DNA of 62,209 bases from NCBI GenBank assembly GCA_964480695.1, contig CAYZPO010000001.1:2160-64368 (forward strand). The letters run 5' to 3'. Each line of letters begins with the position of its first letter. Position 1 is the first letter of the stretch. This DNA is from an uncultured Gammaproteobacteria bacterium. GTDB taxonomy: Bacteria; Patescibacteriota; Patescibacteriia; UBA9934; CAZDDW01. Below the pieces are notes generated by a model, which had not been told where the DNA came from, ran no database searches, and saw nothing but the letters and a program-made list of their open reading frames with translations. The position numbers and the translations under genes were made by a program. This document shows positions 1-62,209 of this stretch, one piece after another.

Positions 1-756
1 ATTTTCTGCCGCAAATATTCTCTGCCAAAGTTCCATGAACATAAACGCCGAAACGATACTCAGAAGCAGAGCCATGGCAAAAAATGGGACTCCAGCGAAG
101 GCGAATAGATCGAAATGAGTCGAAGGAAGAGTTGCGAAGTCTACTCTCCCGCTGGTAAAAATAATTGGTACAATAAGGATCAAGATAACAACCATTATTA
201 CAAAAGAAAGTGCATCAGCATAGAAATTGCTCCGAAGTCCACCTATTGCCGTGTATACAATCGTAACAATTCCAGCAATGAGCAATATCACATTGAAACT
301 AATACCAGAAATGACTGTTCCCACCGCACCGATACCAACAAATTGAAGTCCAGTAACAAATAGATACCCAAAAATAACTACGATGGCAGCGACTAGACCG
401 ACGGAAGGGGACCCATAGATTTCTGTTAGGAGTTCTGGGACGGTACTTGCCTTGAATTGGTCCCCAAGCCGTTTGATTCTTCCCGCAAGAATCGCTAGCG
501 TCAGTGAAGTTGCGATAGAAACAACTACCATCGTTGTACCGAAACTAATTCCGGTCTCGTATCCCTCAGCTGCTACCGAAAGGAAGAACCCGGCACCGAC
601 ATTGGTGCTTACTATGCTCGCCACAAGAAAAGCCAGTTTCGTCGCCCTACTATTAACCAGGAATCCTGCCGTTCCTTGTCCTTTAGAGAAGTAGGTTGCT
701 ACTCCAAAGACCGCAACCAGATATATGATGACGATAATAGTATCTGCGATGTTCAT
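1..756 (-). CDS. Sodium:solute symporter (SSS) family transporter, N-terminal 252 codons; 3' end lies outside the window
   Basis: Absent from the ORF track because it has no stop inside the window. The reverse strand from ATG 756-754 reads MNIADTIIVIIYLVAVFGVATYFSKGQGTAGFLVNSRATKLAFLVASIVSTNVGAGFF... uninterrupted to nt 1. It is multi-TM, and the N-terminal pattern is typical of PutP/PanF-like SSS transporters. Confidence 0.6.
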   Translation of the reverse strand, partial: MNIADTIIVIIYLVAVFGVATYFSKGQGTAGFLVNSRATKLAFLVASIVSTNVGAGFFLSVAAEGYETGISFGTTMVVVSIATSLTLAILAGRIKRLGDQFKASTVPELLTEIYGSPSVGLVAAIVVIFGYLFVTGLQFVGIGAVGTVISGISFNVILLIAGIVTIVYTAIGGLRSNFYADALSFVIMVVILILIVPIIFTSGRVDFATLPSTHFDLFAFAGVPFFAMALLLSIVSAFMFMELWQRIFAAEN

Positions 757-761
757 ATTTC

Positions 762-1889
762 TCACGCTCCTTTCGCGGCTTCTTGTTGGTGTATTAACGG
801 AGCAGGCGCACTCTCTGGTCGGAAGTTCTTCGTCATATATAGATTCACAAATATCTGTTGTGCAAACACGGTTATTGCAAGCCACTTTGCTGGCATGACC
901 AAGTAGAACACAATAACGGTGAAGAGTAGACCCCAAGAAGCAAGGCGCTCAAAGATCTTTCTACCCTTGGAATTTGGTCCAAAGTGGAAAGCGTATAAGA
1001 GAACGGAAACCGCTGCTGTTGCGAGCGCCCACAGAACCACTGGTACTGCTAGAAAATATACTGAAAATGGAAGGTGGCTTTCGACCAAACTGTTGCAGAG
1101 GATGCTGGCCTTTTCCAGCTTTGTAACCGAGACCAACAGTAGCAATCCAAGCGAATAGTTCAACAGCACAATATGCCACACAATAAAATAGGGTATAATT
1201 AAATGAAATGGACTTGTAGCGGCAAGGACGACAGCCTTGAACACGCCAGTTAGAACTTCCGCAAGTCGAAGTTCCTTTTCTTCTTCTGCGTTCTCAGCGT
1301 TCCTTCTTTTTTCCCTCAGGGTTTCCATGCTGACATTGTACTTTTTTTTCCAATAAGTTATCGATGGGAATAGTTCTACAATTTTCTCGTCGAGATGCCC
1401 CCCTACAAATGTACAAATGTGACTCGCTTGTACTTGTACAGACAGTTTGATCATCACATAGTTCCAGACCCCACAACATATAGCAAATGCCGCAATCTTG
1501 TAGTAGATTTCATATTCTGTAATTGCTAACACGGGAGGAACTTGCTCTCGACCCAATCCCATATTGTCTATCAATTGAAGGAAGACCAGAAGAAGTGAGA
1601 ATATAACCGTAATATCAATCAGGATTTTCCCTATCGCCCACAGAGGTGAGCTTTCGGTCCTTCCCGACATCCGCTTGAAGCCGAGGAAACGAACAACCCA
1701 GTCCTGCGCAAAGAAACCCAGGACTACCAGGAGTATTGTTGCCTGGAAAAAGGAGTGAAACAACTCCTCAAAATGTGCGACTTTCAGCAGCAATCCAATG
1801 GTAGCAGCGTAGATAAAGCCGACAAAAGCATCCAAGGAACTCAAAGAGGGAGGAGTTTTTTCATCTACTAATGCAGTAGTGCTGCTCAT
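762..1889 (-). CDS. Polytopic membrane protein, family not recognised
   Basis: ORF 762..2006. Preferred start is ATG 1889 (MSSTTALVDEK...), preceded by a GAGGGGGTGA SD-like box. Many hydrophobic segments. Its stop is 5 nt upstream of the symporter start. Low GC. Confidence 0.55.
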   Translation of the reverse strand: MSSTTALVDEKTPPSLSSLDAFVGFIYAATIGLLLKVAHFEELFHSFFQATILLVVLGFFAQDWVVRFLGFKRMSGRTESSPLWAIGKILIDITVIFSLLLVFLQLIDNMGLGREQVPPVLAITEYEIYYKIAAFAICCGVWNYVMIKLSVQVQASHICTFVGGHLDEKIVELFPSITYWKKKYNVSMETLREKRRNAENAEEEKELRLAEVLTGVFKAVVLAATSPFHLIIPYFIVWHIVLLNYSLGLLLLVSVTKLEKASILCNSLVESHLPFSVYFLAVPVVLWALATAAVSVLLYAFHFGPNSKGRKIFERLASWGLLFTVIVFYLVMPAKWLAITVFAQQIFVNLYMTKNFRPESAPAPLIHQQEAAKGA

Positions 1890-2173
1890 TGTCACCCCCT
1901 CAAATGCACCCTCAAGTGGCATGAAAGACAACCGCTGTGAGTTGATTCTAGACCCAACTCCACACCAATCTTCTTCCCAATCGGTACACTCGTCAAGGCA
2001 GTACAAGCAACTTCGTTTATTTTATAAGTACTTATTTCTGCAAAGGGACTCCCTGTTCGAATCTCATGAAACGTTGAGAGTAACGGGGCTTTCGTTTGGC
2101 GTCGCCTTCTCGTATATTTGGCGACGTCCAGCCCATCTGGACCGCTCAAGCGAAGGAACCCAAACGACGCCCC

Positions 2174-3079
2174 ATGACGCTGAACGACCTCATCGACGAC
2201 TACCTCGCTCATCTACGGGATGACCGTGCCCTGGCCGAGCGAACCTTGCGCTCCTATGGTCAGGAGTTGAGGTTGTTCGCCAGTGTCGTTGGCGAAGGTG
2301 TGGCTGCCGATGAACTCTCCAGGGATCACGTACTCGCCTACCTGAACAAGGAAGGCCCGGACGGAAAACCGCTGAATCCATCGAGCCGCAACCGCAAGCT
2401 CATCGTGGTCCGCGGCTTCTGCACTTTTCTGAAAGAACGTGCGCACGCGCGTAAAGACGCTTCGGATGGGATCTCCTGGGCGCGCGTACCCCGGCAGGAA
2501 CGGCCAAGCCTCTCGTTGGCCGACTACCGAGCACTGCTGGATGCCCTGGACGCCATGAGGCTCCCGGCCTGGCGCCAGGTACGAGATCGATGCTTGGTTC
2601 AGCTCCTTTTTCACACCGGCATCCGCGTGGCCGAGCTCGTCGCCATCCATGAGGACCAGATGGACCTCGAGCACGCCGTGATCACCGATCTTCCCCGTAA
2701 GGGTGGTGGTGCTCAGACCATCCCGCTCAACCACGTGGCGGTGACTGAACTGAGGCGCTGGCTATCGACGAGGAACAAGCGAGACGCGCAGGACGAACAC
2801 GTGTTCATCGGCCGTACCGGCTCGGGGCTCGGTGTACGCCAGGTGGAACGTGTGACCAAGGCCCTGGGCCAGCAAGCCGAGATCCCGTTCCCGGTGACGC
2901 CTCACGTCATCCGGCACACCTTTGCCTCGGAGTTGGCCCGGTTGGGCGTGAACATGGAGATCATCCGCAGGCTCATGAACCACCGCAACATCGCCACCAC
3001 GAGCCGGTACACCCACGTCGGGCTGGATGCGCTCAGGGAGGCTGTGGAGTTACTTGGAGAGAAAACCGTTGACGCCTGA
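2174..3079 (+). CDS. Tyrosine recombinase, XerC/XerD-like (integrase 1)
   Basis: ORF 2096..3079; likely start ATG 2174 (MTLNDLIDDYLAHLRDD, typical SAM-like N-domain). C-terminal catalytic signature HVIRHTFASELARLGVNMEIIRRLMNHRNIATTSRYTHV. High GC. Confidence 0.85.
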   Translation: MTLNDLIDDYLAHLRDDRALAERTLRSYGQELRLFASVVGEGVAADELSRDHVLAYLNKEGPDGKPLNPSSRNRKLIVVRGFCTFLKERAHARKDASDGISWARVPRQERPSLSLADYRALLDALDAMRLPAWRQVRDRCLVQLLFHTGIRVAELVAIHEDQMDLEHAVITDLPRKGGGAQTIPLNHVAVTELRRWLSTRNKRDAQDEHVFIGRTGSGLGVRQVERVTKALGQQAEIPFPVTPHVIRHTFASELARLGVNMEIIRRLMNHRNIATTSRYTHVGLDALREAVELLGEKTVDA

Positions 3080-3262
3080 AGGTCGCCTCATATACGATGA
3101 GGCGACATCCAGGCATGGGAGGACCGAGGCGAGCATGAGGAATCCGGAGATGATGAGTCTTCACCTTCCAGGGTAGCAGTTCAGCACAGCCTGACAAGGC
3201 TGGGTTTCTGTTGGGTTATCCACAGCTTCGTCCCCCTCGGAGAGCAACCACCACCGAACAAG

Positions 3263-4852
3263 ATGAGGGAGAAAGGGATGAGGGAGAACAACGTACGGAT
3301 CTTGAGAAATCGGGGACGATGCGCCTTGGGGCTTGTGGTCATCCTGGCGATCACGCCGATGCTCATGGGCATCACCGCTCAGCGGTTGTACAAGGACGGC
3401 CAATCGCTCGAGGAGCAGGACAACCTCTACGCGGCTGCCCTGAGCTACATGGACGCGCTGGACCAGAATCCCAACCACCGCAAGTCCCAGGAAGCGCTCA
3501 ACCGTGTGGCCGAGGGAGCCTACGAGGAAAAGCTGGCTATTGCTGCGGAGTACGAGGGCCAAGGGCGCTTCGAGGACGCCTTAGAGGAGTACAAGGACCT
3601 TGAAGCCTTGGTCAAAGACCTGCGCTACTTCAATGCCCTCAACTTCTCCACTATCAGCGTCAACGACAAGATCTTGGAGATGAACAGCTCCGCGGCCGAA
3701 CAAGCGTACCAGCAGGGCGAGCAAGCGTTTGCCCAGGGGGACTGGGACAAGGCCCTGGACCGCTACGACGAGGCCCTGTTCTTCACAGCGGGCTACAAGG
3801 ACGCCGTAGACAAGCTGGCGACTTGTCTGTACCGCCTAGCCGAGCAGGATCTGGAGTCCCACAACTACCGCCAGGCAGCCAAGGGATTTGTGGACTCGCA
3901 CAAGGCAAAGGTCGTCCCTCCTGGCGATGCCGCCATGCGCGCGGCTGAGATCCACGCAGCCCTCGGCAACCACTTCATCGAGGCAGGATCTTGCCGCCAG
4001 GCGGTTGAAGAACTGACCATGGCGGACCAGCTGTCTGGCGGCCGAGTCGCCGATGACTTGGTCCGTGCTCGAGACTGCGCCACCTTTTCTGTGGCCATGT
4101 TGCCCTTCGACAATCCCACGGGCCGCAACCTTGCCGGCATGGCACTGGGGGAGCGTCTTGCAGACGCAACCTCTTCGAGGGTGCGCAAGGATGTCAGTGA
4201 GTACGTCAAGATCATGGAGCGCAGCGCCCTGGATGCCGTGCTCGTGGAAAAGGGACTCAGTGCCGTGGGCGTGTCGTCTTCGGCGGGAACTCGCTTGGAA
4301 GGGGTGGACTACCTAGTCGTGGGCAAGCTCACCCAGGTCCAGGTCGAGCATCCTGGGGACCAGCCTCAGACGCGGTCAGTCATGACCCGGCAACGCTACG
4401 ACTGCGTCAAGACCTCGAGCAGTGGCAATACCTACAACGACCACTGCTTTCGCGATGTGCCCGTGGAGTACACCTACCACTCGGACCACCTGGCTATCCG
4501 AGTCGCCGGTTCAGTCACGGTCGTGGATGTGGAGACAGGTGAGCAGGTGGGCTCCAAAGCCCTCGACGCTTCGGCTCGCGACTCTGTCGAATGGGCAGAC
4601 GCTTTCCGCAGGGCATCCAACCAAGAGTCGGTCACCGTGGTAGAGATCAATCGGAGGGGTGGGCTGGAGACCAGCGACTACGCAGTGCTTCACCTGGCCG
4701 AAAGGACCAGGACGCTGAGAAGCGAGGGTGAGCTCGCGTCTGATGTGGTGGAGCAGATCGCGCGAGATGCTGCCGGGGTTGTCGTTGGTTCGGTGGATAA
4801 TCCCGGACCGCTGAAGGATCCTGCCGAACTGAGCATCGCTTCGTTGCGTTAG
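3263..4852 (+). CDS. Membrane-anchored TPR-repeat protein with a C-terminal CsgG/LpoB-like domain
   Basis: N-terminal hydrophobic anchor (CALGLVVILAITPMLMGI), then TPR-like helices (AAALSYMDALDQNPNHRKSQEAL..., AEYEGQGRFEDALEEY...). The stretch FSVAMLPFDNPTGRNLAGMALGERLAD...IMERSALDAVLVEKGL...GVDYLVVGKL resembles the CsgG/LpoB-type lipoprotein fold. Confidence 0.5.
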   Translation: MREKGMRENNVRILRNRGRCALGLVVILAITPMLMGITAQRLYKDGQSLEEQDNLYAAALSYMDALDQNPNHRKSQEALNRVAEGAYEEKLAIAAEYEGQGRFEDALEEYKDLEALVKDLRYFNALNFSTISVNDKILEMNSSAAEQAYQQGEQAFAQGDWDKALDRYDEALFFTAGYKDAVDKLATCLYRLAEQDLESHNYRQAAKGFVDSHKAKVVPPGDAAMRAAEIHAALGNHFIEAGSCRQAVEELTMADQLSGGRVADDLVRARDCATFSVAMLPFDNPTGRNLAGMALGERLADATSSRVRKDVSEYVKIMERSALDAVLVEKGLSAVGVSSSAGTRLEGVDYLVVGKLTQVQVEHPGDQPQTRSVMTRQRYDCVKTSSSGNTYNDHCFRDVPVEYTYHSDHLAIRVAGSVTVVDVETGEQVGSKALDASARDSVEWADAFRRASNQESVTVVEINRRGGLETSDYAVLHLAERTRTLRSEGELASDVVEQIARDAAGVVVGSVDNPGPLKDPAELSIASLR

Positions 4853-4999
4853 CTTGCCCTGTAGTCCCCAAACTCAGCAGCAAGAGGTAAACCGCATGTG
4901 CTTCTTGGAAGGTGGGCTTGCAGTCAACTGAGGATAGTCAGCGGAGCGAACACCCGTCTCTCCATTTCAAGCTTGCTTTAGATGTGTTTGTTTCAGAAA

Positions 5000-6454
5000 T
5001 CATCCGGCTTGTGTCTCAGAACCAAGGGTCCAAACGCCACCTTTCTTGATCGAACTTCCTACTTCACTCTTCTCAGACACGTACTTCTCGGTTCTTCTAG
5101 CCTCTCTGAAAAGTGCCCTTTCCTTGTAGTATTTTGACCCTGTTCGGAAGGCAGCTGCAAGCGTAGTGTTTACGGCCGCAGCGGACAAGTTCCAAACGGG
5201 ACTATTCAACAGCCTACCTATGATATGTGGGGCGCTATAAAACTCTAAAATACAGCGTATTAGGCCATCTTCTAGCTCATTTGACGTCATTCTTTTTGGC
5301 TCAAACACAGAGTGAGCTGTATCGTATTTGCTCCAAGGATAACGCAGTCCAAACTTCGACTCGTTGGAGGTTTCAATATAGAGGCGTCCTTCTCTCTGGT
5401 ACTTACTAAACAGATTTGTTCCTGGGTATGGGGTTAGAATATGAAATGCTGCGGCCTCAAGTTTGGATTTTTTACAGAAATCTAAAGTCACATCGAAGAC
5501 ACTGCTATCTTCATTGTCAAATCCGAAAACAAATGATCCTTCAACCATTATTCCCTGGTCATGAACACGTTGAACGCAATCAACCAGATCCTGAGGTATT
5601 GCGTTTTTCAACCTCCAAATGTGCGACAGAGAATCAAAACCAATCATCATTCCTTTGCAGCCACTCTTTCCTATCTGTACAAGTAGGTTCTTGTCACGAC
5701 ATACGTTAACGGGTAGTTGGGCATACCAATCAACACCTGTCACTCCTATTTCTTGGATAAATTGTGCGAAATGAGGATTCTCAAATAAATTGTCATCCAA
5801 AATAAATATTCGCTTCGTCCGCGTACTCTTAATTTCATTCACCACATCTACAATGTCTCGCGCACGCAGCCCCTTTCCTGCTGTAATAGGAACAGAACAA
5901 AAAGGACATGTGTTCGGGCATCCTCTACTTGTTTGAATGGAAGCCCCCTGAAAGAGACTTTTTCCTCGTAGTAGTTTCCTGGATTGCATAGGGAAGTCAC
6001 GCGGGGTAACAAGATCAGAGCCTCCCGATTCGTTTGTATATAGGCTTCTATAATCTCCAGATCGAATATCATCAAGCACTACGTTCCACAGGTACTCGGC
6101 TTCGCCTTTTACTACAACATCGCAATATTTTTGTGCCTCCTCCGAACACACCGTAGGATGAATTCCGCCCAGCACGACGATACTGCCTTTTCGTCGGAAT
6201 TCCGCAGAAAGCTCATATGCTCGCTCGGCCATACAAGTCGAGACGGTGATTCCTACCACATCCCAGTGGCCTTTTTTGGGGATTGTCTCAACGCTCTCGT
6301 CAATGATTTCAACGTCCCAACACTCCGGCGTGATGGACGCCAGAGAAGTGAGAGTGTTTCGATAGATGTGGAAAATGCGTTTGCCAGCACGCATCATCTT
6401 AACTGGGATTACAATTTCTTTAGCAGGTGAAACCAGTAGCAGTTTCATTTGCAT
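5000..6454 (-). CDS. B12-binding-domain radical SAM enzyme
   Basis: N-terminal Rossmann-like B12-binding region (KLLLVSP..., VVGITVSTCMAERAYELS, VVLGGIHPT) followed by the radical SAM cluster motif SRGCPNTCPFCSV. ATG 6454 overlaps the upstream TGA by 1 nt (GTGATG). Low GC. Confidence 0.8.
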   Translation of the reverse strand: MQMKLLLVSPAKEIVIPVKMMRAGKRIFHIYRNTLTSLASITPECWDVEIIDESVETIPKKGHWDVVGITVSTCMAERAYELSAEFRRKGSIVVLGGIHPTVCSEEAQKYCDVVVKGEAEYLWNVVLDDIRSGDYRSLYTNESGGSDLVTPRDFPMQSRKLLRGKSLFQGASIQTSRGCPNTCPFCSVPITAGKGLRARDIVDVVNEIKSTRTKRIFILDDNLFENPHFAQFIQEIGVTGVDWYAQLPVNVCRDKNLLVQIGKSGCKGMMIGFDSLSHIWRLKNAIPQDLVDCVQRVHDQGIMVEGSFVFGFDNEDSSVFDVTLDFCKKSKLEAAAFHILTPYPGTNLFSKYQREGRLYIETSNESKFGLRYPWSKYDTAHSVFEPKRMTSNELEDGLIRCILEFYSAPHIIGRLLNSPVWNLSAAAVNTTLAAAFRTGSKYYKERALFREARRTEKYVSEKSEVGSSIKKGGVWTLGSETQAG

Positions 6455-8493
6455 CACCCTGTGACCTGTTGGCCAGTGCCCGTGGTCGTTGGTGTTTCCT
6501 TTTTTGATAGTATTTTCATCTGTCTATCTAGGAAATAACAAAACACTGTAACATAAATGGACAGTACACCGTATCCAATGGACAGCACGCCGAAACCAAA
6601 CCCATCGATTTGATTGCTGAGCATATTGAAACCCTGTACCCATTGAAGTTGATATGCATTTGTGAGTAGGCTTTCGATGCTGTTGTGGATAAACCAAAAT
6701 ACAAATCCAAGAAAAATGGCTACGAAGTGGAAGACGTACCAAACCTTGTTTGGAACTATAGATGCTTGAAGTGCAAATATTATTGCTACGATAACCGTTA
6801 CAGCCCAACCAAAAAACACACCCAACGAACCAAGTTGTGTTCGGTTTTGCCCTGGCTTCTCTACGAGAGAAAACCAAGAGACATCAATGTCACTACTACC
6901 GGAAAAAGTAATTCTCGTTCCTTCAATCGTCTCGATTGCTTCAATCACCTCAAATGGGGTAGATCCGACGAATTCCGCTAGCTCACAAACTCTGACAATT
7001 TCGTGCTTGGTTTCTGAAATGAAACGGAGCACGTAGGCGACTTCGGCTTCCAACTCAGTGAGCTGCGCACTCTGTACTGCGTGTACTAGGTCGTTGTGTT
7101 CCCTCCATGAGCCTTCGACTTTCTGAATTGCGGGCTTCAAGTATGCCGCACCGATATGAACTTCTATTTCATTTCCTGTAGATATGTTGAGTTCATCGAT
7201 ATTTGTTGAAGTAAGAAGGACGAGGACTAGAAGTAGTATCGTCCCTGCACCTCTGGCCAGAAACAGCCGCCGCCGCCGATTCCAGAAGCGTTTTTTTGAC
7301 AAGAAGTACTCGAGAGGATAGAACATCGACTGCTTGAGTCTCGGAATAGACAACGAAGTGAAAAAGAAAAAGACAAAATCCAAGACCAAAAAAGCAAACA
7401 GTAAGCCTAGTCCAAGCTCGAGGTACACAGCGATGAGTGGCATTGTTAGTGTTGCGGCCAGTTGCCAGCCAAAGTAACGCCTAACGCTTGTCGAGTATGC
7501 CCTCGACAACTCACCATTTAGAGTACTACCGTCAAGAAACTTGAGCCTACCTAGCTTGGACTGGTAGTAGCCTTCAATGTACTTTAGTAGATTGAAAACA
7601 AAGAAGTGCAATACGACGACGGCAACAACACCAACGGTCCGAAAAGAGTAGCTGATGGATTCCCACGGGAGCCACTCGTAGTCAGAAAATATAAAACCTC
7701 CCATGAAAAATGGGCAAAGAAACAGAACCACCACCGCAAATCCCCATCTAACGGTGTTGCTCTCCCACAGCGAGAATCTTTCAAAGAACTTCCATCGATG
7801 CGATAGCAAACCATATATATAGTCAAACAATATCATTACTACCGCTAAAATAATAATTGCGCACAAGAGATAGACTATTGTAGTAAACACAGACGTCGCC
7901 TCAATCACTCCAAAGACATAATCTGCGATTGTTATTGAGACTAGACCAACGATTGAAAGAAGAATTGGTATGAGATAAAGGAGGTACGGTATCCCCAGAA
8001 AGGCTCTAGTGGGTTTCTCTCCTCGCAAGACAACAAGTCGCCTATATGCACTGTTGAACAGTGGTATATAGATGTAATATGGCAGGAGAGCTAGAACCAT
8101 GATTGTTGAGACAACATTTGTTGGCGTCTGAACAATGTACCAGCACGAAACACAGAACCCAGCAGCAGATAAAACTAGCAATACTGCAAAGAGATAGTAC
8201 TTCTTGAGAAAGTCTGTAAGAGGCAATTTTTGTTGGAAAATATCTGGAGTGGCAAATTCTAGCTGGTGAGAAATGATGTAGATGAAGGGAAGAAAGAGCC
8301 CAGCATGAATCAGTAGCTTGAGGAGATCAATATTTGAGAATGGGATACGAGCGAGTTCTGTTCCACCAAAGGCCAAAGACAGTACTATTACGACGAAATA
8401 AAAACTCGCTCCTGTGGCACCCGAAAAGCAAATGCGTATTTGTTTGCCAATTCCCAATTCAGAAGACACATGTCCCTCCCAGCCAATGTGCAC
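6454..8493 (-). CDS. Large (679 aa) polytopic membrane protein with an internal soluble, winged-helix-like insert
   Basis: About 12 N-terminal and about 4 C-terminal hydrophobic segments flank a ~130-aa soluble region (..LTELEAEVAYVLRFISETKHEIVRVCELAEFVGSTPFEVIEAIETIEG..). Translationally coupled to the radical SAM gene. No family recognised. Confidence 0.6.
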   Translation of the reverse strand: MHIGWEGHVSSELGIGKQIRICFSGATGASFYFVVIVLSLAFGGTELARIPFSNIDLLKLLIHAGLFLPFIYIISHQLEFATPDIFQQKLPLTDFLKKYYLFAVLLVLSAAGFCVSCWYIVQTPTNVVSTIMVLALLPYYIYIPLFNSAYRRLVVLRGEKPTRAFLGIPYLLYLIPILLSIVGLVSITIADYVFGVIEATSVFTTIVYLLCAIIILAVVMILFDYIYGLLSHRWKFFERFSLWESNTVRWGFAVVVLFLCPFFMGGFIFSDYEWLPWESISYSFRTVGVVAVVVLHFFVFNLLKYIEGYYQSKLGRLKFLDGSTLNGELSRAYSTSVRRYFGWQLAATLTMPLIAVYLELGLGLLFAFLVLDFVFFFFTSLSIPRLKQSMFYPLEYFLSKKRFWNRRRRLFLARGAGTILLLVLVLLTSTNIDELNISTGNEIEVHIGAAYLKPAIQKVEGSWREHNDLVHAVQSAQLTELEAEVAYVLRFISETKHEIVRVCELAEFVGSTPFEVIEAIETIEGTRITFSGSSDIDVSWFSLVEKPGQNRTQLGSLGVFFGWAVTVIVAIIFALQASIVPNKVWYVFHFVAIFLGFVFWFIHNSIESLLTNAYQLQWVQGFNMLSNQIDGFGFGVLSIGYGVLSIYVTVFCYFLDRQMKILSKKETPTTTGTGQQVTG

Positions 8494-8631
8494 TAGCTCA
8501 TCTCAATGTCGGCGAATACCTCTCCAGTAATGCTATTCACTACGCAGAACCAGACTAACACATCGCACAAGTGTGAACCAATCGTTGATGTGGATCTGGA
8601 AATGAAAGTTACAAATAATAACGGTTATGAA

Positions 8632-8654
8632 AGGCACCACGTCACGTGGTGCCT
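8632..8654 (-). terminator. Palindromic hairpin overlapping the stop of the nuclease gene
   Basis: AGGCACCACGT-C-ACGTGGTGCCT has perfect 11-bp arms. On the minus strand it is followed by TTTCATAACCGTTATTATTT. Confidence 0.35.
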
Positions 8655-9424
8655 AGCAGTGGATTGCATCGTTTGCATGCATCCTTGAACTCACACTTCG
8701 GACAAGCCCAGGAAGGAACAGGGAAGAAAGACCGATTGCAGATCGCCTGATAGACCTCGAACGCGAGCTTCACGAACCAGCCCTCCTCGCGCTGACTCTT
8801 GCTGATCTCGAACTCTTCGAGCGCTGGTTTCTTGGTCTTGAGCAGCTCGACCACTGAGATCCTCGGCTCAGTGCCTGAGATCTGCCGCCAGGCATAGGAG
8901 TATCCAGACAGCTGAACTAGCCATTGGTAGCCGTTGGGATCGACCTTCTTGGCGGCCGTCTTGATCTCCCCGACCACGCCATCGTCCTCGATGAAGTCGA
9001 TGTAGCCAACCAGAGGAACGGCTAGCTCTTCGCCGGTGTCGTGATCGATGATGGGCACCTCGAAGCGCTCTTCGACCACGCTGAACGTTCGGTGGGCGAA
9101 CTTGGTCACGAACAGGCCCACGAGCGTCTCTCCAAGCTCCTGCAGGCTCTCTGGGGTCTGCTTTCCATCGAACGTCAGCCCACCTGGCGCAGTCTGCGCC
9201 GTCCAGTCCGCCCGAAAGATGCACAAGGTGCGATCAAGCGAAGGATGAGAGCCTTCCAGCCGTCGTCGGCTCCACCACTCGATGGTCGTGTGCACGGCCG
9301 AACCGAACGCCATGGCTGCTGCTTTGCGCTCAGGCTCAATGTGGTCGATGTAGCGGAAGCGGTACTTGCGAGGGCAGATGAGAAAGGTGTTGAGCTGGGA
9401 TACCGAGAGGTACTCAGGTCCCAT
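8642..9424 (-). CDS. PD-(D/E)XK nuclease, Cas4/RecB-like exonuclease with a C-terminal Cys cluster
   Basis: ORF 8642..9508; likely start ATG 9424 (MGPEYLSVSQLNTFLICPRKYRFRYI). Nuclease core GYIDFIEDDGVVGEIKTAAK. C-terminal CPKCEFKDACKRC plus the N-terminal Cys form the 4-Cys pattern of Cas4/AddB-type nucleases. Confidence 0.75.
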   Translation of the reverse strand: MGPEYLSVSQLNTFLICPRKYRFRYIDHIEPERKAAAMAFGSAVHTTIEWWSRRRLEGSHPSLDRTLCIFRADWTAQTAPGGLTFDGKQTPESLQELGETLVGLFVTKFAHRTFSVVEERFEVPIIDHDTGEELAVPLVGYIDFIEDDGVVGEIKTAAKKVDPNGYQWLVQLSGYSYAWRQISGTEPRISVVELLKTKKPALEEFEISKSQREEGWFVKLAFEVYQAICNRSFFPVPSWACPKCEFKDACKRCNPLLGTT

Positions 9425-52877: not shown

Positions 52878-53252
52878 ATGACTGAGGAAGAGCGCCAGCA
52901 ACGAAAGATTTGGTTCTGGATCATCTTTGTTCTGGCCATGCTCGTGATTTTGTACGGGTGGTATCGAATTAATTGGATTACCTGGCGAGACGGTTTTAAT
53001 GGAGTGATCGAGATTCAAGAACAAGGTGAAGAGCTGATGGAAGAGTTCGGTGAGATTGAAGACGAAGCTACAGAGCAGATGATCGAGTTGCGAGATCAGG
53101 CTATAGAAACCGCCCAACCAACAGAGGAGATTTCAGAAGAAAACGTAGATGAAGTCATAGAAATATTAAAGGAAAATATTGAAGAGCAATATGCCGAAGA
53201 AGAAAGTAATCAAGAAGAAGCCGGTGAAGAAAACGGCCAAGAAGAAAACTAA
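52878..53252 (+). CDS. Small membrane-anchored, highly acidic protein
   Basis: One TM segment ([19 protein letters not shown]) followed by a Glu-rich tail. Confidence 0.5.
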
Positions 53253-55772: not shown

Positions 55773-55801
55773 TTGACAGAGTGATCAGGTCACGCTAAGT
55801 T
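55773..55801 (+). promoter_or_regulatory. Promoter in front of the high-GC islet gene
   Basis: TTGACA-17 nt-TAAGTT. Confidence 0.5.
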
Positions 55802-55972
55802 AATTTAAGATCATTGAAAACGTCTTACTCTCGCCTCGAAGCTGGGGAACAGGTTCCTAGTGGCAGGGCGGGCCAAAACCGTGCACTGCGGAAGCGTCAG
55901 GATCGATGCCGCCCGAAGGGGTGGATTCGTGCCTTATACGCCAGGCTGTGGTGGTCGAAGGGTCAAGTCAGA

Positions 55973-56914
55973 ATGAGCGTGTCTCCAAGAGAACAAAGGA
56001 AAAGAGAGTTTGGGATGCTCGGACGGTTGATGCAGCTATTCGGAGGGCCGTCAGAGCTGTTCCGATCAGCTGCTCTTCAGGGTTTCGTGGATATCTCATA
56101 CGCACGGGATGTGTGCGAGGCTATTGATGGTCGGCATCTGAGCCAACCCGAACTTCAGGTCCTCAGACGGCAGGTGCGCCTGCGCATGCAAGATCCAAGG
56201 TGGGGGGACTCGTCAAAGGATCAGGTCGAGGTCTCGTACGCGATTCCTGGGAGATACATTTCTCCAAAGGCTCTCCGTGCTGCTTTGTTTGGACACATCG
56301 ACTACACTCCGGAACAGCTCGAAGCTCTGGCCGAGATCCCGTACACTCGAAAAGAGGTGATAGAGGAGGTTGGTGGAAAAGACGGCCAAGAGGCCATCCT
56401 GTTCCCAGGGCATCCGTCAATCAACGCCAAGCGTCTGTACGATATCTTCTGGCATGATCGACACAGAACTCCCTATTTCGGTGGGGTTAGTCAGAATGGG
56501 CTGACGTTCAAACACGGCTCCTTCTGGTGGTTCGACGATCGATGCAAGGAGATCGCTGAACGACCCTTGGAGCTGCGGTGGTATCTGGTCCGTACCTCCT
56601 GTGAGCCGTACGACACTTGTGACACTGACACTCATCGTCAAACCTGGTTGATCGAAGCCTTGATGGCGGCTTTGTTGCTCTACTCTGTGGGGCAACGCGG
56701 GTTCGTTCAGCGCAGGGTTGGAACGAACGTGGTCAACGGGGATGCCACGATTGAGTGCCGTGAGCGCAGTGTCCATCTTGATTCAGGAGATGTCTATCCT
56801 GAACACGGTGTTGGTCTTGATATGAACGAACACGGTCAAGTCGATATCAAGACTTCGTCTGGTCATGGGTCTCACGGCCCCTTGTGGGTAAGACGACTTC
56901 CTGATGGCTCTTAG
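55973..56914 (+). CDS. Hypothetical protein (orphan), high-GC islet
   Basis: ORF 55814..56914 (TTG). The first ATG, 55973, gives MSVSPREQRKREFGMLGRLMQLFGG... No motif recognised. Confidence 0.5.
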   Translation: MSVSPREQRKREFGMLGRLMQLFGGPSELFRSAALQGFVDISYARDVCEAIDGRHLSQPELQVLRRQVRLRMQDPRWGDSSKDQVEVSYAIPGRYISPKALRAALFGHIDYTPEQLEALAEIPYTRKEVIEEVGGKDGQEAILFPGHPSINAKRLYDIFWHDRHRTPYFGGVSQNGLTFKHGSFWWFDDRCKEIAERPLELRWYLVRTSCEPYDTCDTDTHRQTWLIEALMAALLLYSVGQRGFVQRRVGTNVVNGDATIECRERSVHLDSGDVYPEHGVGLDMNEHGQVDIKTSSGHGSHGPLWVRRLPDGS

Positions 56915-56969
56915 TTGAGCCGTTTCCTTCGGGCGCCTGCGATCCAGCCGGCGCTCTTTCCATTTCTAA

Positions 56970-57015
56970 AAGAAAACCACCCCGATCGTGAGGACCGAGT
57001 GTGGTCTGATCGGGG
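56970..57015 (-). terminator. Terminator between convergent islet genes
   Basis: CCCCGATC...GATCGGGG stem, followed on the minus strand by TGGTTTTCTTTT. Confidence 0.45.
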
Positions 57016-57037
57016 GGGGTGAAGGTTGAGTGGCTAG

Positions 57038-57664
57038 CTAACCGCTCTGGGTGTGCTGGGCTTCGGTCTGGGCCTTGGCCAGCTCTGCGTCGAAGTAGGC
57101 CTGGGCCGCATCCAGGAGTCGGTCGTTGCAGGAGGCGAACTCACCCATGTCCAGATTGCACCGGTAGTCGGCAACGTCGACCCAGTACACGTTGCCGGTG
57201 ATGTTGAACAGGGTCTGCTCTTCTGCCGTTCGGCTACCGTCTTCCCAACGGTCGACCATCGACCAGCTGGTCTGGCTCGAACGCTTGCTGCTGATGTATG
57301 TCCTGGTACCCATGGCGGTCTGGTCACGCGTGTCCAGTACGATCCGGCGAGCCCAGATTCCGAGGTTGCCCAGCTCGGGCAGGTCACAGGCCAGCAGGCC
57401 ATGGCCCAGGTTCTGGAGTTCACAGACGTGCGACTCATGGACCTCGCTCACGTCCGGCTTCTCCAGCCGTTCGAAAGCCTCCCGACTCGGGTAGGTGAAC
57501 GTGGTCGTTTCCACGGTGTACACCAGCGCCGGGGCCGGCGTCCAGCGGATCACGACCTCGTCCTCCACGGTCTGGGAGCTGTGGGTGTAGGGCTCGGCCA
57601 TGGCTGGCAGAGCGAACAGGACGCTGATCAGCGGGAACAGGTAGAACAGGCGGAAAAAGGACAT
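57038..57664 (-). CDS. Secreted orphan protein, high-GC islet
   Basis: ORF to 57715. ATG 57664 gives the signal peptide MSFFRLFYLFPLISVLFALPAMAEP. Confidence 0.55.
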   Translation of the reverse strand: MSFFRLFYLFPLISVLFALPAMAEPYTHSSQTVEDEVVIRWTPAPALVYTVETTTFTYPSREAFERLEKPDVSEVHESHVCELQNLGHGLLACDLPELGNLGIWARRIVLDTRDQTAMGTRTYISSKRSSQTSWSMVDRWEDGSRTAEEQTLFNITGNVYWVDVADYRCNLDMGEFASCNDRLLDAAQAYFDAELAKAQTEAQHTQSG

Positions 57665-57773
57665 GGGACCTCCGTGATGGTTTGGGTGATGGTTAGGCGA
57701 CGTTGTTTGTGCCACCGAACAACTAAAGAATATAGTCGAAAGTTCTTAATTTGTCAAGATTCACCTCTCCTGG

Positions 57774-57802: not shown

Positions 57803-57827
57803 TTCGCCACGATTTAATGTTTATTTA

Positions 57828-57843
57828 ACGCCCTTACGGGCGT
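57828..57843. repeat. 16-nt GC hairpin in the rpmF 5' UTR
   Basis: ACGCCC-TTAC-GGGCGT. Its exact reverse complement occurs at 59624-59639, inside queH. Confidence 0.8.
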
Positions 57844-57856
57844 CATTCCCTTCGAT

Positions 57857-59393: not shown

Positions 59394-59950
59394 AGTTGTT
59401 ATTACATGTTTGTTGTGGGACCTGCGGTTCGTGGGTTCCAAAGCGTCTTAGTCATGAATATGACGTGACGCTTTTTTATTTCAATCCTAACGTTCATCCA
59501 GAAGAGGAGTATCAGCGACGCCTCGAAGGAGCCCGGCTGATGGCTGATGAACTCGGATTGGATCTGGTCGAAGGTGGCTATGATCCTGAAGCTTGGTTTA
59601 AGTTTGTTCTTCAGTCGGGAGTGACGCCCGTAAGGGCGTTACAGTCAGAACCAGAAGGCGGACAGCGCTGCCAACTTTGTTTTGAGCACCGACTTCGAGC
59701 CACTGCCGAGCATGCTCGTGATAACGACTTTGATTGTTTTGCTACAACATTGACTGTGGGTCGACGAAAAAAAGCCAGCGATGTTAATCCGGTTGGTGAG
59801 CGTATTGCTGATGAAGTTGGGGTCAAATTTTTATCTCGCGATTTTAAAAAAGCTGGGGGAGAAGACCTATCACAAATCCGAGCCCAAGAGCTCGGAGTGT
59901 ACCGACAAGAATACTGTGGGTGTATTTATTCGCATTCTTGTCGGGAGTGA
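59387..59950 (+). CDS. queH: Epoxyqueuosine reductase QueH (DUF208)
   Basis: LLLHVCCGTCG, YFFNPNVHPEEEYQRR, RCQLCFEHRL, YRQEYCGCIYS. Confidence 0.8.
   Translation: MVKLLLHVCCGTCGSWVPKRLSHEYDVTLFYFNPNVHPEEEYQRRLEGARLMADELGLDLVEGGYDPEAWFKFVLQSGVTPVRALQSEPEGGQRCQLCFEHRLRATAEHARDNDFDCFATTLTVGRRKKASDVNPVGERIADEVGVKFLSRDFKKAGGEDLSQIRAQELGVYRQEYCGCIYSHSCRE
59624..59639. repeat. 16-nt GC hairpin inside the queH coding sequence
   Basis: ACGCCC-GTAA-GGGCGT (encodes ..VTPVRAL..). Confidence 0.8.
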
Positions 59951-59969
59951 CCCCGCCGCTGGCGGGGTT
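59949..59969. repeat. GC-rich hairpin at the queH stop (terminator-like)
   Basis: GACCCCGCC-GCT-GGCGGGGTT. Partner of 43029-43049. Confidence 0.8.
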
Positions 59970-60055
59970 ATCTTGTTGTGTAGCGGAACCCTTTAGGGTT
60001 CCATTTTGAAACGGGGAACCGCACAGGTCGCAAGGGACGTGTGCGGCAGGTGAGG

Positions 60056-60808
60056 TTAGTTGCGCGAGGGGAGCAACCTCTCGATCAGAACATCAGTAGC
60101 TTCACTGGGAGGCAAAACTCGAGCTGGTGGATCCGGTCGGTGTTCCTTCCAGTGGTCTTCGAGCTGCTCCAGGACCTTGACCAGTTGTTTGGATCGGTCC
60201 GAGGCCCGAAAGAAGATCTGGGTGATAGCCCACGAGCGATCTCGGCCATAGCGCTGGAAGATCTTGAATCCGCGCTCCCAGAGTACCCCCAGGCGACCTC
60301 TCATCAGGTGCTGGAAGCTGCCTCTAGTTACGGTTTTGTCTGGAGACTTCATGATCAGTCCTTTGGCCAGAGCGTAGCTCAGGAGCGGGTTGTGAATTTG
60401 GTCCGGTTGGACCGGTGGTCCAGCGAGCTGGTCGAACCCTAACAGGATCGGTTCTAAGGCGAGCCCGTTGTTGACCGATTCCAGAACTTCAGTACTGCGT
60501 TCTGTTGGGATAGCTCGGACCCCAGGAGCATACACCCGAAGCGAATGTTCAACTGGACCTTCAGGTCCATCAAGAACGATGGTTAGGAAAAGGTGTCCTT
60601 CTACACCGTTAACGAAACGTATCTGACCCAAGCTTCCAGCCGGGAGGTGAATCGTGACGAACGTAGGTAGTCCTGGTAGTCTGATCTGGAAACGCGTGCG
60701 GAAGCGTACAACTTGGCCTGCTTCCAGCGTGATCAGTTGCACCTCAGCCCCCGAACAGCCAGGGGAAGAAGTTCTTGAGAACAAGCTGAGCAAGAATCGC
60801 GATGGCAC
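60056..60808 (-). CDS. Hypothetical protein (orphan), higher-GC islet; start uncertain
   Basis: 250-aa ORF. A GTG at ~60741, just after the stop of a 28-aa upstream peptide ORF, is an alternative start. Confidence 0.45.
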   Translation of the reverse strand: MPSRFLLSLFSRTSSPGCSGAEVQLITLEAGQVVRFRTRFQIRLPGLPTFVTIHLPAGSLGQIRFVNGVEGHLFLTIVLDGPEGPVEHSLRVYAPGVRAIPTERSTEVLESVNNGLALEPILLGFDQLAGPPVQPDQIHNPLLSYALAKGLIMKSPDKTVTRGSFQHLMRGRLGVLWERGFKIFQRYGRDRSWAITQIFFRASDRSKQLVKVLEQLEDHWKEHRPDPPARVLPPSEATDVLIERLLPSRN

Positions 60809-60830
60809 ACAGGCCAGCTAGGTAGTTCAT
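60744..60830 (-). CDS. Possible 28-aa hydrophobic peptide
   Basis: MNYLAGLCAIAILAQLVLKNFFPWLFGG. Overlaps the annotated N-terminus of the 250-aa ORF in another frame. Confidence 0.25.
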   Translation of the reverse strand: MNYLAGLCAIAILAQLVLKNFFPWLFGG

Positions 60831-60960
60831 GCGGCCTCGGGGAAGCCGCGGTTTGACTCGCTTCCCGATGAGTTCCAGACCGATGATCATGACGACCCCC
60901 TGGTTGACGTTTGTGAGACTGTAGTTTAAAAAACGGTTTTTGTCAATTGTTTAAAAAACA

Positions 60961-61219: not shown

Positions 61220-61253
61220 AACTCCGAGATCCGTCTCGGGGTTTTGTGTTTTC
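61220..61253 (+). terminator. Terminator of tRNA-Lys
   Basis: AACTCCGAGA-TCCG-TCTCGGGGTT followed by TTGTGTTTTC. Confidence 0.7.
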
Positions 61254-61283
61254 TTGGTAAGCATCATGTGATAAAATATAATC

Positions 61284-62156
61284 ATGAGTATTAAATGGTT
61301 GAACAAAAGATATATTTTTGCCATTCAAGGCGGAATCATTGCTTTGATTATTTTTGCTATTGCCACTATTTTTATTCCTGGACAGGGGCCACTAGCTGAT
61401 GTTCAGATCATTCTAACTGCTAGCACCTTCCTCTTTGCCATCCTAGCTGGATTTTTTATTTCCCGTTCTAACAATCGTTATGATGAGATCAGGTCTGAGG
61501 TGGCTGAAGAAGATGCTCTGATCTTGTCGATTTATCGCATGAGTGATTTCTTCGGAGATTCTTTTCAAAAAAAGATTTCCGGACACATTGATGACTATTA
61601 TATTGAGGCAATGGATTTTGATGTCGGAGCTGGCTATAAAAATACTACTCCACATATGGAGAAAATTTATCAAGCTTTTCACGCACTGAAGAAGATTAAA
61701 GATAGTAAAATTGAGGACCTATATGATGATATCTTTATGTTGCTCTCAGATTTGGAAGAAAGTCGTAACAAAGCCTCAGTTCTTCGGCATGAAAAAATGA
61801 CCTATGGTCAATGGGCTATTTTGATTGTTCTGGTTTCTATAATAATTTTCTGCCTTTTCTTTCTTAAGATTCCAGCAGTGTACTCTCAAGTAATCACAGT
61901 TATGCTTTCAACAACCCTGGTTCTAGTGTTGTTGTTTTTACGAGATATTCAGAATCTTAGATTGTATGGGGAGCATTTTTTACTTGAGTCTGCTGAAGAG
62001 GTCTTTGAGTCTATTGGAAAGGAGCGTTATTACCCAGAATATTATTTTAATGAAGGGTTTTTAAAAGAGGTTCCAGAGCATGTTAAACAATATCGTTTGG
62101 GTACACACCAGCCAGGAGAAAAGCATAAAATTAAATTGATTAAAGTGAAGAGGTAG
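61284..62156 (+). CDS. Membrane protein (290 aa), family not recognised
   Basis: Two N-terminal and two C-terminal TM segments around a soluble helical domain. Low GC. Confidence 0.6.
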   Translation: MSIKWLNKRYIFAIQGGIIALIIFAIATIFIPGQGPLADVQIILTASTFLFAILAGFFISRSNNRYDEIRSEVAEEDALILSIYRMSDFFGDSFQKKISGHIDDYYIEAMDFDVGAGYKNTTPHMEKIYQAFHALKKIKDSKIEDLYDDIFMLLSDLEESRNKASVLRHEKMTYGQWAILIVLVSIIIFCLFFLKIPAVYSQVITVMLSTTLVLVLLFLRDIQNLRLYGEHFLLESAEEVFESIGKERYYPEYYFNEGFLKEVPEHVKQYRLGTHQPGEKHKIKLIKVKR

Positions 62157-62170
62157 TTTTAGAAAAAATA

Positions 62171-62204
62171 AACTCTGAGATTCTTCTCGGAGTTTTGTGT
62201 TTGT
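62171..62204 (+). terminator. Terminator, paralogous to the tRNA-Lys terminator
   Basis: AACTCTGAGA-TTCT-TCTCGGAGTT followed by TTGTGTTTGT. 28/34 identical to 61220-61253. Confidence 0.7.
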
Positions 62205-62209
62205 TAAAT

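Follow-up and report, generated by a model that had tools for sequence, protein, structure and literature searches.

Elements of the integrative and conjugative kind (ICEs) or of the integrative and mobilizable kind (IMEs) that reside at tRNA genes, together with the AICE-like elements (actinomycete ICEs) and their int-xis-rep-tra layout, are among the closest described counterparts of the locus analyzed here. Chromosomal transfer hotspots, that is, hypervariable regions flanked by core genes, are likewise a known concept. We examined a stretch of 62,209 nucleotides, referred to throughout as the window (contig C1, positions 2160–64368, of genome G000, a metagenome-type assembly of 1.05 Mb in 91 contigs with 46.9% GC), in which blocks of low and high GC content alternate at the scale of genes. 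We conclude that this patchwork is genuine biology, probably a low-GC, vertically inherited core combined with GC-rich flexible genes that were acquired horizontally by a small-genome marine bacterium of the Patescibacteria type. Positions 1–39572 of the window are the inside of a composite island bracketed by tRNA-Glu sequence, and the remainder is core chromosome carrying three small GC-rich islets.

In Patescibacteria, genomic islands and singly transferred genes make up as much as 13% of the genome length and were exchanged mostly within the Patescibacteria, according to a recent survey (mSystems 2025, PMC12455944). The original prediction for this DNA had called composition switches that preserve operon-like spacing unusual for natural horizontal transfer, a premise that fails for the Patescibacteria in light of the transfers described in that survey. 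The genomes described there and the one studied here are alike in being small genomes of the Candidate Phyla Radiation with many islands and single transfers; here, GC-rich islets amount to 16% of the genome and the traceable homologues belong to Patescibacteria. The survey relied on aquifer genomes and prediction tools, whereas here two gene classes separate by bimodal GC content, Shine–Dalgarno (SD) use, and amino acid composition, with near-complete turnover of the flexible complement from one congener to the other at sites that persist. Relaxases are rare in this phylum (109 in 103 genomes, 39 of them beside a coupling-protein gene), and the study that counted them concludes that the phylum acquired mobile elements from different sources (Microb Genom 2025, PMC12102498). 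What is new here is a composite island bounded by attachment (att) repeats, an element family of which three genomes carry copies, and numbers for turnover and site reuse.

Composition steps and continuity of the sequence

By eye, the original prediction had divided the window into low-GC, high-GC, and intermediate blocks, and the GC content computed for each block agrees with this division in every case. The measured values are 0.443–0.488 in the low-GC blocks, 0.562–0.621 in the high-GC blocks, and 0.520 and 0.539 in the two intermediate blocks (19250–23200 and 37150–37810); positions 39540–62209 have a GC content of 0.451 once their three high-GC blocks are removed. The GC profile steps between about 0.44–0.49 and 0.56–0.66 at the predicted places. 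Across segments of 600 nt, the standard deviation of GC content is 0.076, compared with 0.019 in 200 triplet shuffles (maximum 0.024) and with a binomial expectation of 0.020. The steps are real, sharp, and far beyond chance. At 19 of the 20 junctions, GC content changes by 0.10–0.25 between the flanking 300 nt, and at the remaining one (12330) it changes by 0.08. The two gene classes in the window differ mostly at third codon positions, with a third-position GC content (GC3) of 0.36–0.53 in the low class and 0.64–0.84 in the high class, and first positions are shifted too. Two GC-rich pieces had escaped the division by eye: 37810–39540 (GC 0.551), which holds an integrase gene, and 42002–42553 (GC3 0.74).

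A further claim, that several switches fall into short gaps between co-directional genes, holds for the gaps but not for the switches. The gaps are indeed 18, 15, and 9 nt after a SorC-like regulator gene and 24 and 64 nt around an NYN nuclease gene. In both of these named examples, however, the composition changes inside the 3′ part of the upstream open reading frame (ORF) and not in the gap. The change from the SorC-like gene to the low-GC genes lies at about 34436–34450, some 75–85 nt inside the 3′ end of ORF 33443–34522, and the upstream border of the NYN segment lies at about 12565, within the 3′ part of ORF 12366–13241. Gene end, spacer, and next gene therefore share one composition, which explains why operon-like spacing is kept. 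At least two joints lie inside the 3′ end of the upstream gene, and gene end, spacer, and next gene would have arrived as one piece. These two joints inside ORFs fit recombination between related modules; the entry route of the added pieces is mostly not visible.

Two of the explanations first offered for the mosaic, a chimeric assembly and a mixed-population consensus, would make it an artifact, as would misbinning. Suspicion of this kind is natural for a metagenome bin of 91 contigs with N gaps, and C1 itself is a scaffold with a gap of 100 N just left of the window. Thirteen public seawater or marine sequencing runs from four studies contain a 10-kb stretch that includes five junctions, six of them with at least half of its words. 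We compared window positions 1–20000 with Logan contigs, which come from a different assembler, of runs X2 and X4 (study P2), X6 (P1), and X8 (P3); the studies are dated 2018, 2023, and 2025. Run X1, possibly the source sample, and run X3, of the same size as X1, were left out of this comparison, which used contigs and not raw reads; the studies may stem from related campaigns, and the runs are not necessarily all independent.

All 128 contig records are at least 99% alike to window 1–20000, without other letters, indels, or joints, and the sole loose end, in one X6 contig at 14401, is a 23-mer that resembles an adapter. Bridging was assessed in 32 of the 128 records, and among these, contigs bridge six of the nine junctions in this part of the window: 2040 (X2 record 2, X8 record 26), 11530 (X2 record 6, X4 record 13), 12330 (X2 record 6, X8 record 28), 13300 (X2 record 6, X6 record 20), 18610 (X2 record 8, X6 record 24), and 19200 (X2 record 8, X4 record 16, X6 record 24, X8 record 32). 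Record 6 of X2 covers 11101–13425, and record 18 of X6 lies only inside the 10100–11530 block. All 30 depth bins are covered in X2, X4, and X6, although coverage is no proof of a bridge; in X8, a run of low depth, 21 of the 30 bins are covered, and no conclusion was drawn from its holes. Depth is equal in the two GC classes (15 high-GC versus 10 low-GC bins: 6.36 versus 6.61 in X2, 2.86 versus 2.85 in X6, and 3.47 versus 4.55 in X4). Genome-wide, most GC-rich islets are contig-internal and flanked by core genes with orthologues, and the same bimodality is seen in the 20-contig congener G001 and in the closed, one-contig relative G003. With independent contigs in agreement, most junctions bridged, and no variant letters in the contigs of four runs from three studies, the chance of an assembler chimera or of a mixed consensus is very low, and we give next to no credence to artifact, misbinning included, as the maker of the mosaic. 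An artificial-looking GC patchwork in a metagenome-assembled genome is here trustworthy sequence, and it has an explanation. As a separate observation, the island population looks very uniform, as contigs from runs dated 2018, 2023, and 2025 match it with 100% identity and without variant letters.

The tRNA-Glu island and its backbone family

A tRNA-Glu(UUC) gene was identified with ARAGORN and Rfam at 39573–39647 on the minus strand. The 25 nt at its 3′ end (39573–39597) form the att core, which recurs as an exact direct repeat in the same orientation at C1:159–183 and nowhere else in C1. The island delimited by the two copies, C1:184–41731, measures about 41.5 kb including the N gap, and window 1–39572 is its inner part. 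On the plus strand, a tyrosine integrase gene (38315–39538; GC 0.56; Pfam Phage_integrase at 3e-34 with a SAM-like N domain) ends 35 nt from the 3′ end of the intact tRNA-Glu gene. In the sister genome G001 (same genus, 1.065 Mb examined), tRNA-Glu is 97% identical and its neighbors are other, low-GC genes without an integrase; no island gene other than the integrases has a homologue in that sequence. A recombinase beside a tRNA gene, a tRNA 3′ repeat at the far border, and absence from the relative's site characterize islands of the ICE/IME type. The neighborhood of tRNA-Glu is variable on both sides, and between tRNA-Glu and tsaD, G001 has about 9.6 kb of different accessory genes (C9:30774–40490), compared with 3.0 kb in G000.

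Like tRNA-integrated ICEs and IMEs, the island has an integrase by the tRNA gene, a far tRNA 3′ repeat, an excisionase-like helix–turn–helix (HTH) protein, replication-relaxation proteins, one coupling ATPase, and deviant composition. The transfer genes seen are those for the coupling ATPase and for two Replic_Relax-family proteins, whose role as relaxases is putative. The coupling ATPase is TrwB/TraG-like, whereas TraB of AICEs is FtsK-like. Three integrase genes (2096–3079, 23460–24677, and 38315–39538) and a gene order rearranged relative to the element in genome G349, described below, distinguish the island from one clean element and mark it as a composite or decayed array. A search at 16–24 nt with one or two mismatches found no internal att copies that could belong to the two inner integrases. 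The island backbone is an integrative element, probably mobilizable or conjugative, which would have integrated by site-specific recombination at tRNA-Glu and may still be able to move.

The backbone could be recognized through other genomes of the order. The DUF932 gene of the window is present in two of 80 other genomes examined, G349 and G364. In contig C2 of G349, homologues of 11 window genes lie in one stretch of about 20 kb, and eight of these 11 have homologues in one stretch of contig C1 of G364. In the window, the 11 genes are distributed over three high-GC blocks, listed here with their identities to G349. The first block (8642–10097, minus strand; Pfam, PADLOC) consists of the gene for a PD-(D/E)XK/Cas4-like nuclease (8642–9508; 50%) and ORF 9414–10097 (48%), whose homologues are also adjacent in G349. 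The second (13402–18595; Pfam) contains the DUF932 gene (13402–14547, minus strand; 33%), ORF 16469–17035 (26%), the gene for replication-relaxation protein 1 (17032–17907; 42%), and ORF 18053–18595; homologues of genes of this block are found at 26–42% identity in the elements of G349 and G364. The third (23460–29727, minus strand; Pfam) is a transfer and integration module of six genes encoding an integrase (23460–24677; 61%), an HTH_17 excisionase-like protein (xis, 24442–25134, start uncertain; 45%), the products of ORF 25138–27018 (36%) and of a small ORF (27644–27991; 42%), replication-relaxation protein 2 of the Replic_Relax family (26694–27731; 40%), and the coupling ATPase of type IV secretion system (T4SS) type (27988–29727; 38%; Atlas families TrwB/TraG-D/DUF87).

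As these homologues stand together in G349 and G364, the blocks at 8.6–10.1, 13.4–18.6, and 23.2–29.7 kb form the rearranged backbone of one element family. The G349 element has a GC content of 0.55–0.67 and lies beside tRNA-Ile between flanks of 0.41–0.51, and the G364 genome as a whole has 64% GC. In a metagenome contig, L181, genes for the coupling ATPase (56%), the small ORF, the relaxation protein (48%), and xis follow one another in the same order. The integrase at 2096–3079 and an integrase of the G364 element share 37% identity. From these comparisons of sequence, the family appears to circulate in this order of Patescibacteria, and its copies in three genomes offer a handle on DNA movement among these uncultured bacteria.

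The low-GC pieces, a Lamassu-type defense module, and a ubiquitin-like conjugation cassette are absent from the relatives' elements and are, in this sense, additions. In the mechanism that we propose, low-GC ORFs, the Lamassu module of 54% GC, and the GC-rich ubiquitin-like cassette would have recombined into and beside a backbone of 60–66% GC. The original prediction had named very active cassette-type recombination as one explanation. This stands insofar as the mosaic was made by horizontal transfer and recombination, but the arrangement is not integron-like. Single-gene units, foreign composition, short spacers, and, in places, co-directional genes are shared with integron cassette arrays; repeated attC-like sites are lacking, joints lie inside ORFs, and units have their own promoters. 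Flanking direct repeats or target-site duplications are absent at 14 of the 15 block borders, and no family of repeats is common to the borders. The other border belongs to a low-GC single-gene cassette (18572–19245, plus strand; ORF 18736–19182), in which the segment 18596–19221 is flanked by a 24/28-nt direct repeat (18572–18595 and 19222–19245) that includes the stop codon of the upstream ORF. The repeat scores 20, compared with a 95th percentile of 10 for random window pairs.

Flexible genes, their possible sources, and reused sites

The two composition classes extend across the genome. Counting ORFs of at least 100 aa, gene GC content in G000 is bimodal (957 ORFs; modes at 0.44–0.46 and 0.56–0.60), and 158 ORFs on 51 of the 91 contigs fall into the high-GC class, defined as a gene GC content of at least 0.55. 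Sliding-window segmentation yields 92 GC-rich islets with a median length of 1.35 kb, which together make up 171 kb (16%) and are mostly internal to contigs. G001 is bimodal as well, with 14.5% of 970 ORFs at or above 0.55 GC. In a 400-kb sample of the closed G003, a member of the same family, 5–6.5% of 1-kb windows exceed 0.55 GC versus 11% in G000. A single proliferating element was rejected as the cause, since only five BLASTP pairs exist among the 158 GC-rich genes.

The classes differ in more than base composition. A Pfam family (E-value of 1e-5) was found for 13 of 85 GC-rich genes versus 73 of 85 low-GC genes sampled at random from the same loci. For 70 of the 85 GC-rich gene positions, no overlapping frame has a family; wrong-frame ORF calls were rejected as a cause of the missing families, as only two of 118 overlapping alternative ORFs have one. 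A strong SD 5-mer precedes the first start codon in 23% of the GC-rich versus 4% of the low-GC genes, and control motifs occur in 1% of either class. The GARP/FYMINK ratio is 1.77 in GC-rich and 0.90 in low-GC genes, and R/(R + K) is 0.73 and 0.44, respectively; the amino acid values of the GC-rich genes are those typical of the proteins of GC-rich organisms. By our own crude heuristic, a signal-peptide-like N-terminus is found in 29 of 158 GC-rich versus 47 of 731 low-GC genes (odds ratio 3.3, p = 1e-5). Located with the Rfam model, the 16S genes of G000 (C80), G001 (C17), and G003 (C1) keep the canonical anti-SD sequence at the 3′ end, despite the 4% of low-GC genes with a strong SD.

The classes also differ in inheritance. 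In G001, a reciprocal best hit could be assigned to only four of the 161 GC-rich genes, compared with 496 of 719 low-GC genes (median identity 73.6%); the count is 161 and not 158 because GC content was rounded to two decimals in this comparison. Composition-normalized tetranucleotide signatures of the backbone blocks in the window correlate at r = 0.80–0.88 with the islets and at 0.59 with the core. The GC-rich genes show the marks of horizontal acquisition: a composition shift at all three codon positions (GC1, GC2, and GC3), patchy distribution, and absence from the sister genome. This amounts to a quantified split of a 1-Mb symbiont-type genome into a stable low-GC core and a flexible complement of about 16% that reuses insertion sites; the complement differs in codon use, protein makeup, and translation signals, and from one congener to the other nearly all of it is replaced.

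Where it can be traced from homologous sequences, the donor pool appears to lie largely within the Patescibacteria. Core loci of the order span 0.40–0.62 GC, and their reaching 0.62 indicates that GC-rich kin exist. A second trpS gene (trpS-2; G000:C36:2583–3659) is GC-rich and lies beside GGDEF and PLP-decarboxylase genes. Its product best matches a protein in G001 (59%); next come proteins named Portnoy-, Magasanik-, Falkow-, and Uhrbacteria, with 43–49% identity. Homologue names of this kind, and not a taxonomy call, are also among the grounds for labeling G000 itself Uhrbacteria/Patescibacteria. This extra copy is found in four of 31 related genomes, with a GC content of 0.61–0.68 in all four; the native trpS is present in all relatives (30 of 30) and is 86% identical between G000 and G001. 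Two ORFs of a small islet in the window have very few homologues: four for ORF 55814–56914 in 5.8 billion proteins, the only named one from Uhrbacteria, and three for ORF 57038–57664 in 1.84 billion representatives. G364 was rejected as the donor of the small islets; in the 435 kb sampled of its roughly 1 Mb, matches to the 158 GC-rich genes are confined to the island element genes and two short repeat-type matches.

A different origin is suggested by the coupling ATPase, for which no close relative was found in 185,579 species genomes. Its best named matches come from a Deltaproteobacteria metagenome-assembled genome of 71% GC (38%) and from Solirubrobacteraceae (26–27%); the best metagenome protein is 66% identical, and another match, at 49%, is named Deltaproteobacteria. 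A nine-sequence alignment of the coupling ATPase recovered only three distant loci from the species genomes; searches for this protein found none in viral contigs and two in metagenome contigs, of which one (L181) was useful. These names would fit a GC-rich host or neighbor outside the Patescibacteria, Myxococcota/Deltaproteobacteria-like or actinobacterial, whose DNA was taken up in the course of an epibiotic life, and so would a lean of Atlas clusters toward Actinomycetota and Acidobacteriota and three GC-rich ORFs elsewhere in the genome with MopE-type metal-binding repeats. The identities are low, however, and the element family occurs in two genomes of the same order at equal or higher identity (integrase 61%, nuclease 50%, and coupling ATPase 38%). 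In addition, trpS-2 and the islet ORFan point to Patescibacteria, and the lack of a Pfam family at 70 of 85 GC-rich positions is unlike genes of well-sampled phyla. We consider such a donor improbable.

The sites of the flexible genes were compared between the two congeners in 398 collinear core-gene gaps, of which 48 hold a GC-rich stretch in G000 and 60 in G001. Among 31 syntenic islet pairs, 13 have no tblastx similarity, and the remainder have only weak, short matches or matches in flanking core genes. As at transfer hotspots, sites flanked by the same core genes carry different accessory content in the two species (30–32 of 48); that this content is uniformly GC-rich in both species is not predicted by the hotspot concept alone. 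In the reading that we favor, horizontal acquisition, the islets would have entered by recombination at hotspots, and their GC content would stay high since turnover outpaces amelioration.

Several results weigh against horizontal acquisition as we have described it. The 30 gaps that are GC-rich at the same site in both species (32 by a 400-bp criterion) compare with about seven expected, a coincidence that may be due in part to gaps that generally tend to take up accessory DNA of whatever kind. Shared GC-rich genes are few; they have a high GC content in either species and have diverged far more than the core (59% and 51%, compared with 86% for native trpS), and the islet signature is nearer to the species' own core (r = 0.77) than to G364 (0.69). 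As to sources, no close donor was found for the GC-rich genes. The sole GC-rich relative examined, G364 (64% GC, 435 kb), is without the small-islet genes. The coupling ATPase, set apart from the elements of PMC12102498 by its pairing with Replic_Relax-family proteins, reaches at most 30% identity in a sample of 300 Patescibacteria, one of which, G183, is an unpublished genome. As to the island, the left att copy (C1:159–183) lies across the gap of 100 N, where continuity rests on scaffolding. Unlike in ICEs and IMEs, Pfam detected no mating-pore gene (VirB4 etc.) and no canonical MOB relaxase among island ORFs of at least 100 aa; a chromosomal T4SS elsewhere was not searched for. Finally, no contig among the 32 of 128 records assessed bridges junctions 4870, 8640, or 10100.

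Same-site recurrence and shared genes that are GC-rich yet diverged are not predicted by simple recent import. Two readings fit these site and signature facts: hotspots fed from a common GC-rich pool, and a resident compartment with maintained GC content. In the latter, the GC-rich genes would be old, lineage-specific, and fast-evolving occupants of fixed hotspots whose GC content is kept high by an active force such as GC-biased gene conversion at recombination hotspots or selection linked to SD-led expression. The coincident sites, often with stretches of similar length, speak for it, as do weak same-site homologues that are GC-rich in both species (34% by pilB; trpS-2 at 59% and its neighbor at 51%, in the same order), an agreement of r = 0.96 between G000 and G001 in composition-normalized tetranucleotide use of the pooled islets, the nearness of these signatures to the core, and the fact that the named homologues are Patescibacteria. 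However, the dearth of reciprocal best hits in the congener (4 of 161) and the 13 of 31 syntenic pairs without any similarity speak against long residence, and trpS-2 is patchy. The shift at all three codon positions and in the amino acids is like that of truly GC-rich organisms. Integrases, the coupling ATPase, and the att-bounded island, all plainly mobile, belong to the same composition class, and r = 0.96 is also to be expected when a single external pool supplies both species. Maintained residence thus seems to us unlikely, if clearly less so than a donor from another phylum, and we continue to prefer horizontal acquisition.

Slightly more room may be left for a broader idea, itself tentative and well short of probable, that the order keeps a second gene compartment that is GC-rich, SD-led, mostly ORFan, and enriched in secreted proteins, with fixed hotspots, near-complete turnover, and one composition. 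If true, this would imply that the order shares a vector or gene pool dedicated to these genes, with the family of int, xis, relaxation, and coupling-ATPase genes in three genomes as a candidate carrier, or else a locus-specific process that holds GC content high against AT-biased drift. A useful question is why the flexible genes are uniformly GC-rich, whether through their source or through a maintaining force.

Island cargo and islets of the core stretch

The remaining island genes surround the backbone blocks. At the left, a high-GC block on the plus strand (2096–4852; GC 0.61; Pfam) combines the integrase gene 2096–3079 with a TPR/CsgG-like protein gene (3263–4852). It is followed on the minus strand by a low-GC module (5000–8493; GC 0.44; Pfam) that encodes a B12-binding radical-SAM protein (5000–6457) and a 679-aa protein without a family (6454–8493); the two genes overlap by 4 nt, and the module shows a weak PADLOC match to PDC-M51A (3e-7). 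The co-directional trio at 10250–13241 (minus strand) consists of a low-GC ORF of 420 aa (10250–11512), the high-GC NYN nuclease gene (11537–12301; Pfam 3.9e-28), and an AbiGi-like ORF (12366–13241; Pfam 1.7e-4); the GC-rich part extends between about 11558 and about 12565 and reaches into the 3′ end of the upstream ORF, 12366–13241. Several of the low-GC ORFs of the island have no Pfam family.

The Lamassu-type module (19349–23005, minus strand; GC 0.54) comprises genes for LmuB (19349–21391; PADLOC 1.8e-92) and LmuA (21788–23005; PADLOC 2.3e-30), with Pfam matches to DUF3732 and ABC-3C CTD7. These two proteins identify the system; the middle ORF (21437–21712) has no match, and LmuC was not confirmed. 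The ubiquitin-like conjugation cassette is high-GC cargo at 29549–33312 on the minus strand (Pfam; PADLOC E1–E2 models at 1.9e-12). It encodes a ThiF-type E1 (31779–33002), a YukD-like ubiquitin-like protein (31484–31765), and a JAB peptidase (30151–30840) and contains ORF 30837–31496 and flanking small ORFs. The cassette looks complete and is chained to the coupling-ATPase module; it was not found in the elements of G349 or G364.

To the right, on the plus strand, the SorC-like regulator gene (GC 0.57) and the three low-GC ORFs that follow it span 33443–36049. The regulator scores 26.1 bits with Pfam Sugar-bind, under the cutoff of 27, and lies over the cutoff for HTH_24. A high-GC gene for a ParB-HTH protein (Pfam) and a perfect 18-nt palindrome directly after it occupy 36344–37070 on the plus strand. 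The palindrome occurs at 37053–37070 and 18429–18446, with a variant at 18083–18100; these are its only three copies genome-wide, and it is absent from the elements of G349, G364, and L181. It looks like an operator or a partition site.

Beyond the tRNA-Glu gene, the window continues as low-GC core chromosome (39648–62209; GC 0.45 without islets; Pfam). Its genes include those for an ABC exporter, tsaD, tsaE, pilB, ftsH, S1, an MBL-fold hydrolase, gyrA, rpmF, nusB, rnc, queH, tRNA-Arg, tRNA-Lys, and a bestrophin-like gene. From tsaD (42658) to queH (59950), syntenic orthologues are found in G001, G003, and a third relative, G002, at 44–95% amino acid identity, most at 60–90%; the ABC exporter is matched in G002 only (59.6%). 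ORFs 42002–42553 and 52878–53252 and the bestrophin-like gene (61284–62156) have no match in the stretches of the relatives that were compared. Except for 46564–47256, the GC-rich ORFs of the core stretch are without syntenic orthologues in these three genomes, and its three GC-rich islets have no DNA match in 30 relatives.

Islet 1 (45890–47760, minus strand; GC 0.60) lies between pilB and a conserved gene and holds three tandem small-protein genes (45941–46336, 46564–47130, and about 47354–47740). All three are SD-led, the first two encode signal peptides, and a 3′ end and terminator of 59 + 25 nt is repeated. For ORF 46564–47256, G001 has a homologue at 34% identity, likewise within GC-rich sequence and at the corresponding site. 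The third gene, read from 47740 on the minus strand, has an in-frame TAG at 47654–47656 after 28 codons, directly past the hydrophobic N-terminus, with an ATG two codons further on; it may be a pseudogene or may encode a shorter protein without a signal peptide.

Islet 2 (55800–57720; GC 0.58) lies between gyrA and rpmF, which are separated by a spacer of only 56 bp in G001, and consists of the convergent ORFans 55814–56914 (plus strand) and 57038–57664 (minus strand). Both have a sigma-70-like promoter of their own, which lies in AT-rich DNA. The former is preceded by a terminator hairpin and a TTGACA-N17-TAAGTT promoter; the latter combines a TTGACA-N17-TATATT promoter (11 of 12 matches) and a GGAGG site with an intrinsic terminator and encodes a signal peptide. 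Islet 3 (60000–60900; GC 0.56), between queH and tRNA-Arg, is of uncertain strand (ORF 60056–60808, minus, or 60041–60442, plus) and has neither a match in relatives nor a Pfam family. The three islets would each be a self-contained unit of promoter, SD, ORF, and terminator at a variable site of the core chromosome. In this respect, the genes at 45.9–47.8 and 55.8–57.7 kb resemble phage morons, as they each have their own promoter and SD, in several cases a terminator, and a composition unlike that of their neighbors; in contrast to morons, the islets stand between housekeeping genes in a bacterial chromosome with no phage gene nearby.

Two GC-rich loci elsewhere in G000 deserve mention. In contig C9 (L043:10555–14208), otherwise low in GC content, peptide transporter genes of the POT and OPT families stand side by side; both are GC-rich, and they belong to the small number of such genes whose function is clear. 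A GC-rich islet of contig C12 (L034:10104–10715, plus strand) encodes an ECF-type sigma-70 factor on the strand opposite to the longest ORF. In the core stretch of the window, inverted GC-rich hairpin repeats are found at the ends of core genes, with one pair at 43030–43050 and 59948–59968 (21 nt, 100%) and another at 57826–57850 and 59617–59641 (25 nt, 96%); these look like repetitive extragenic palindromic (REP)-type or terminator elements.

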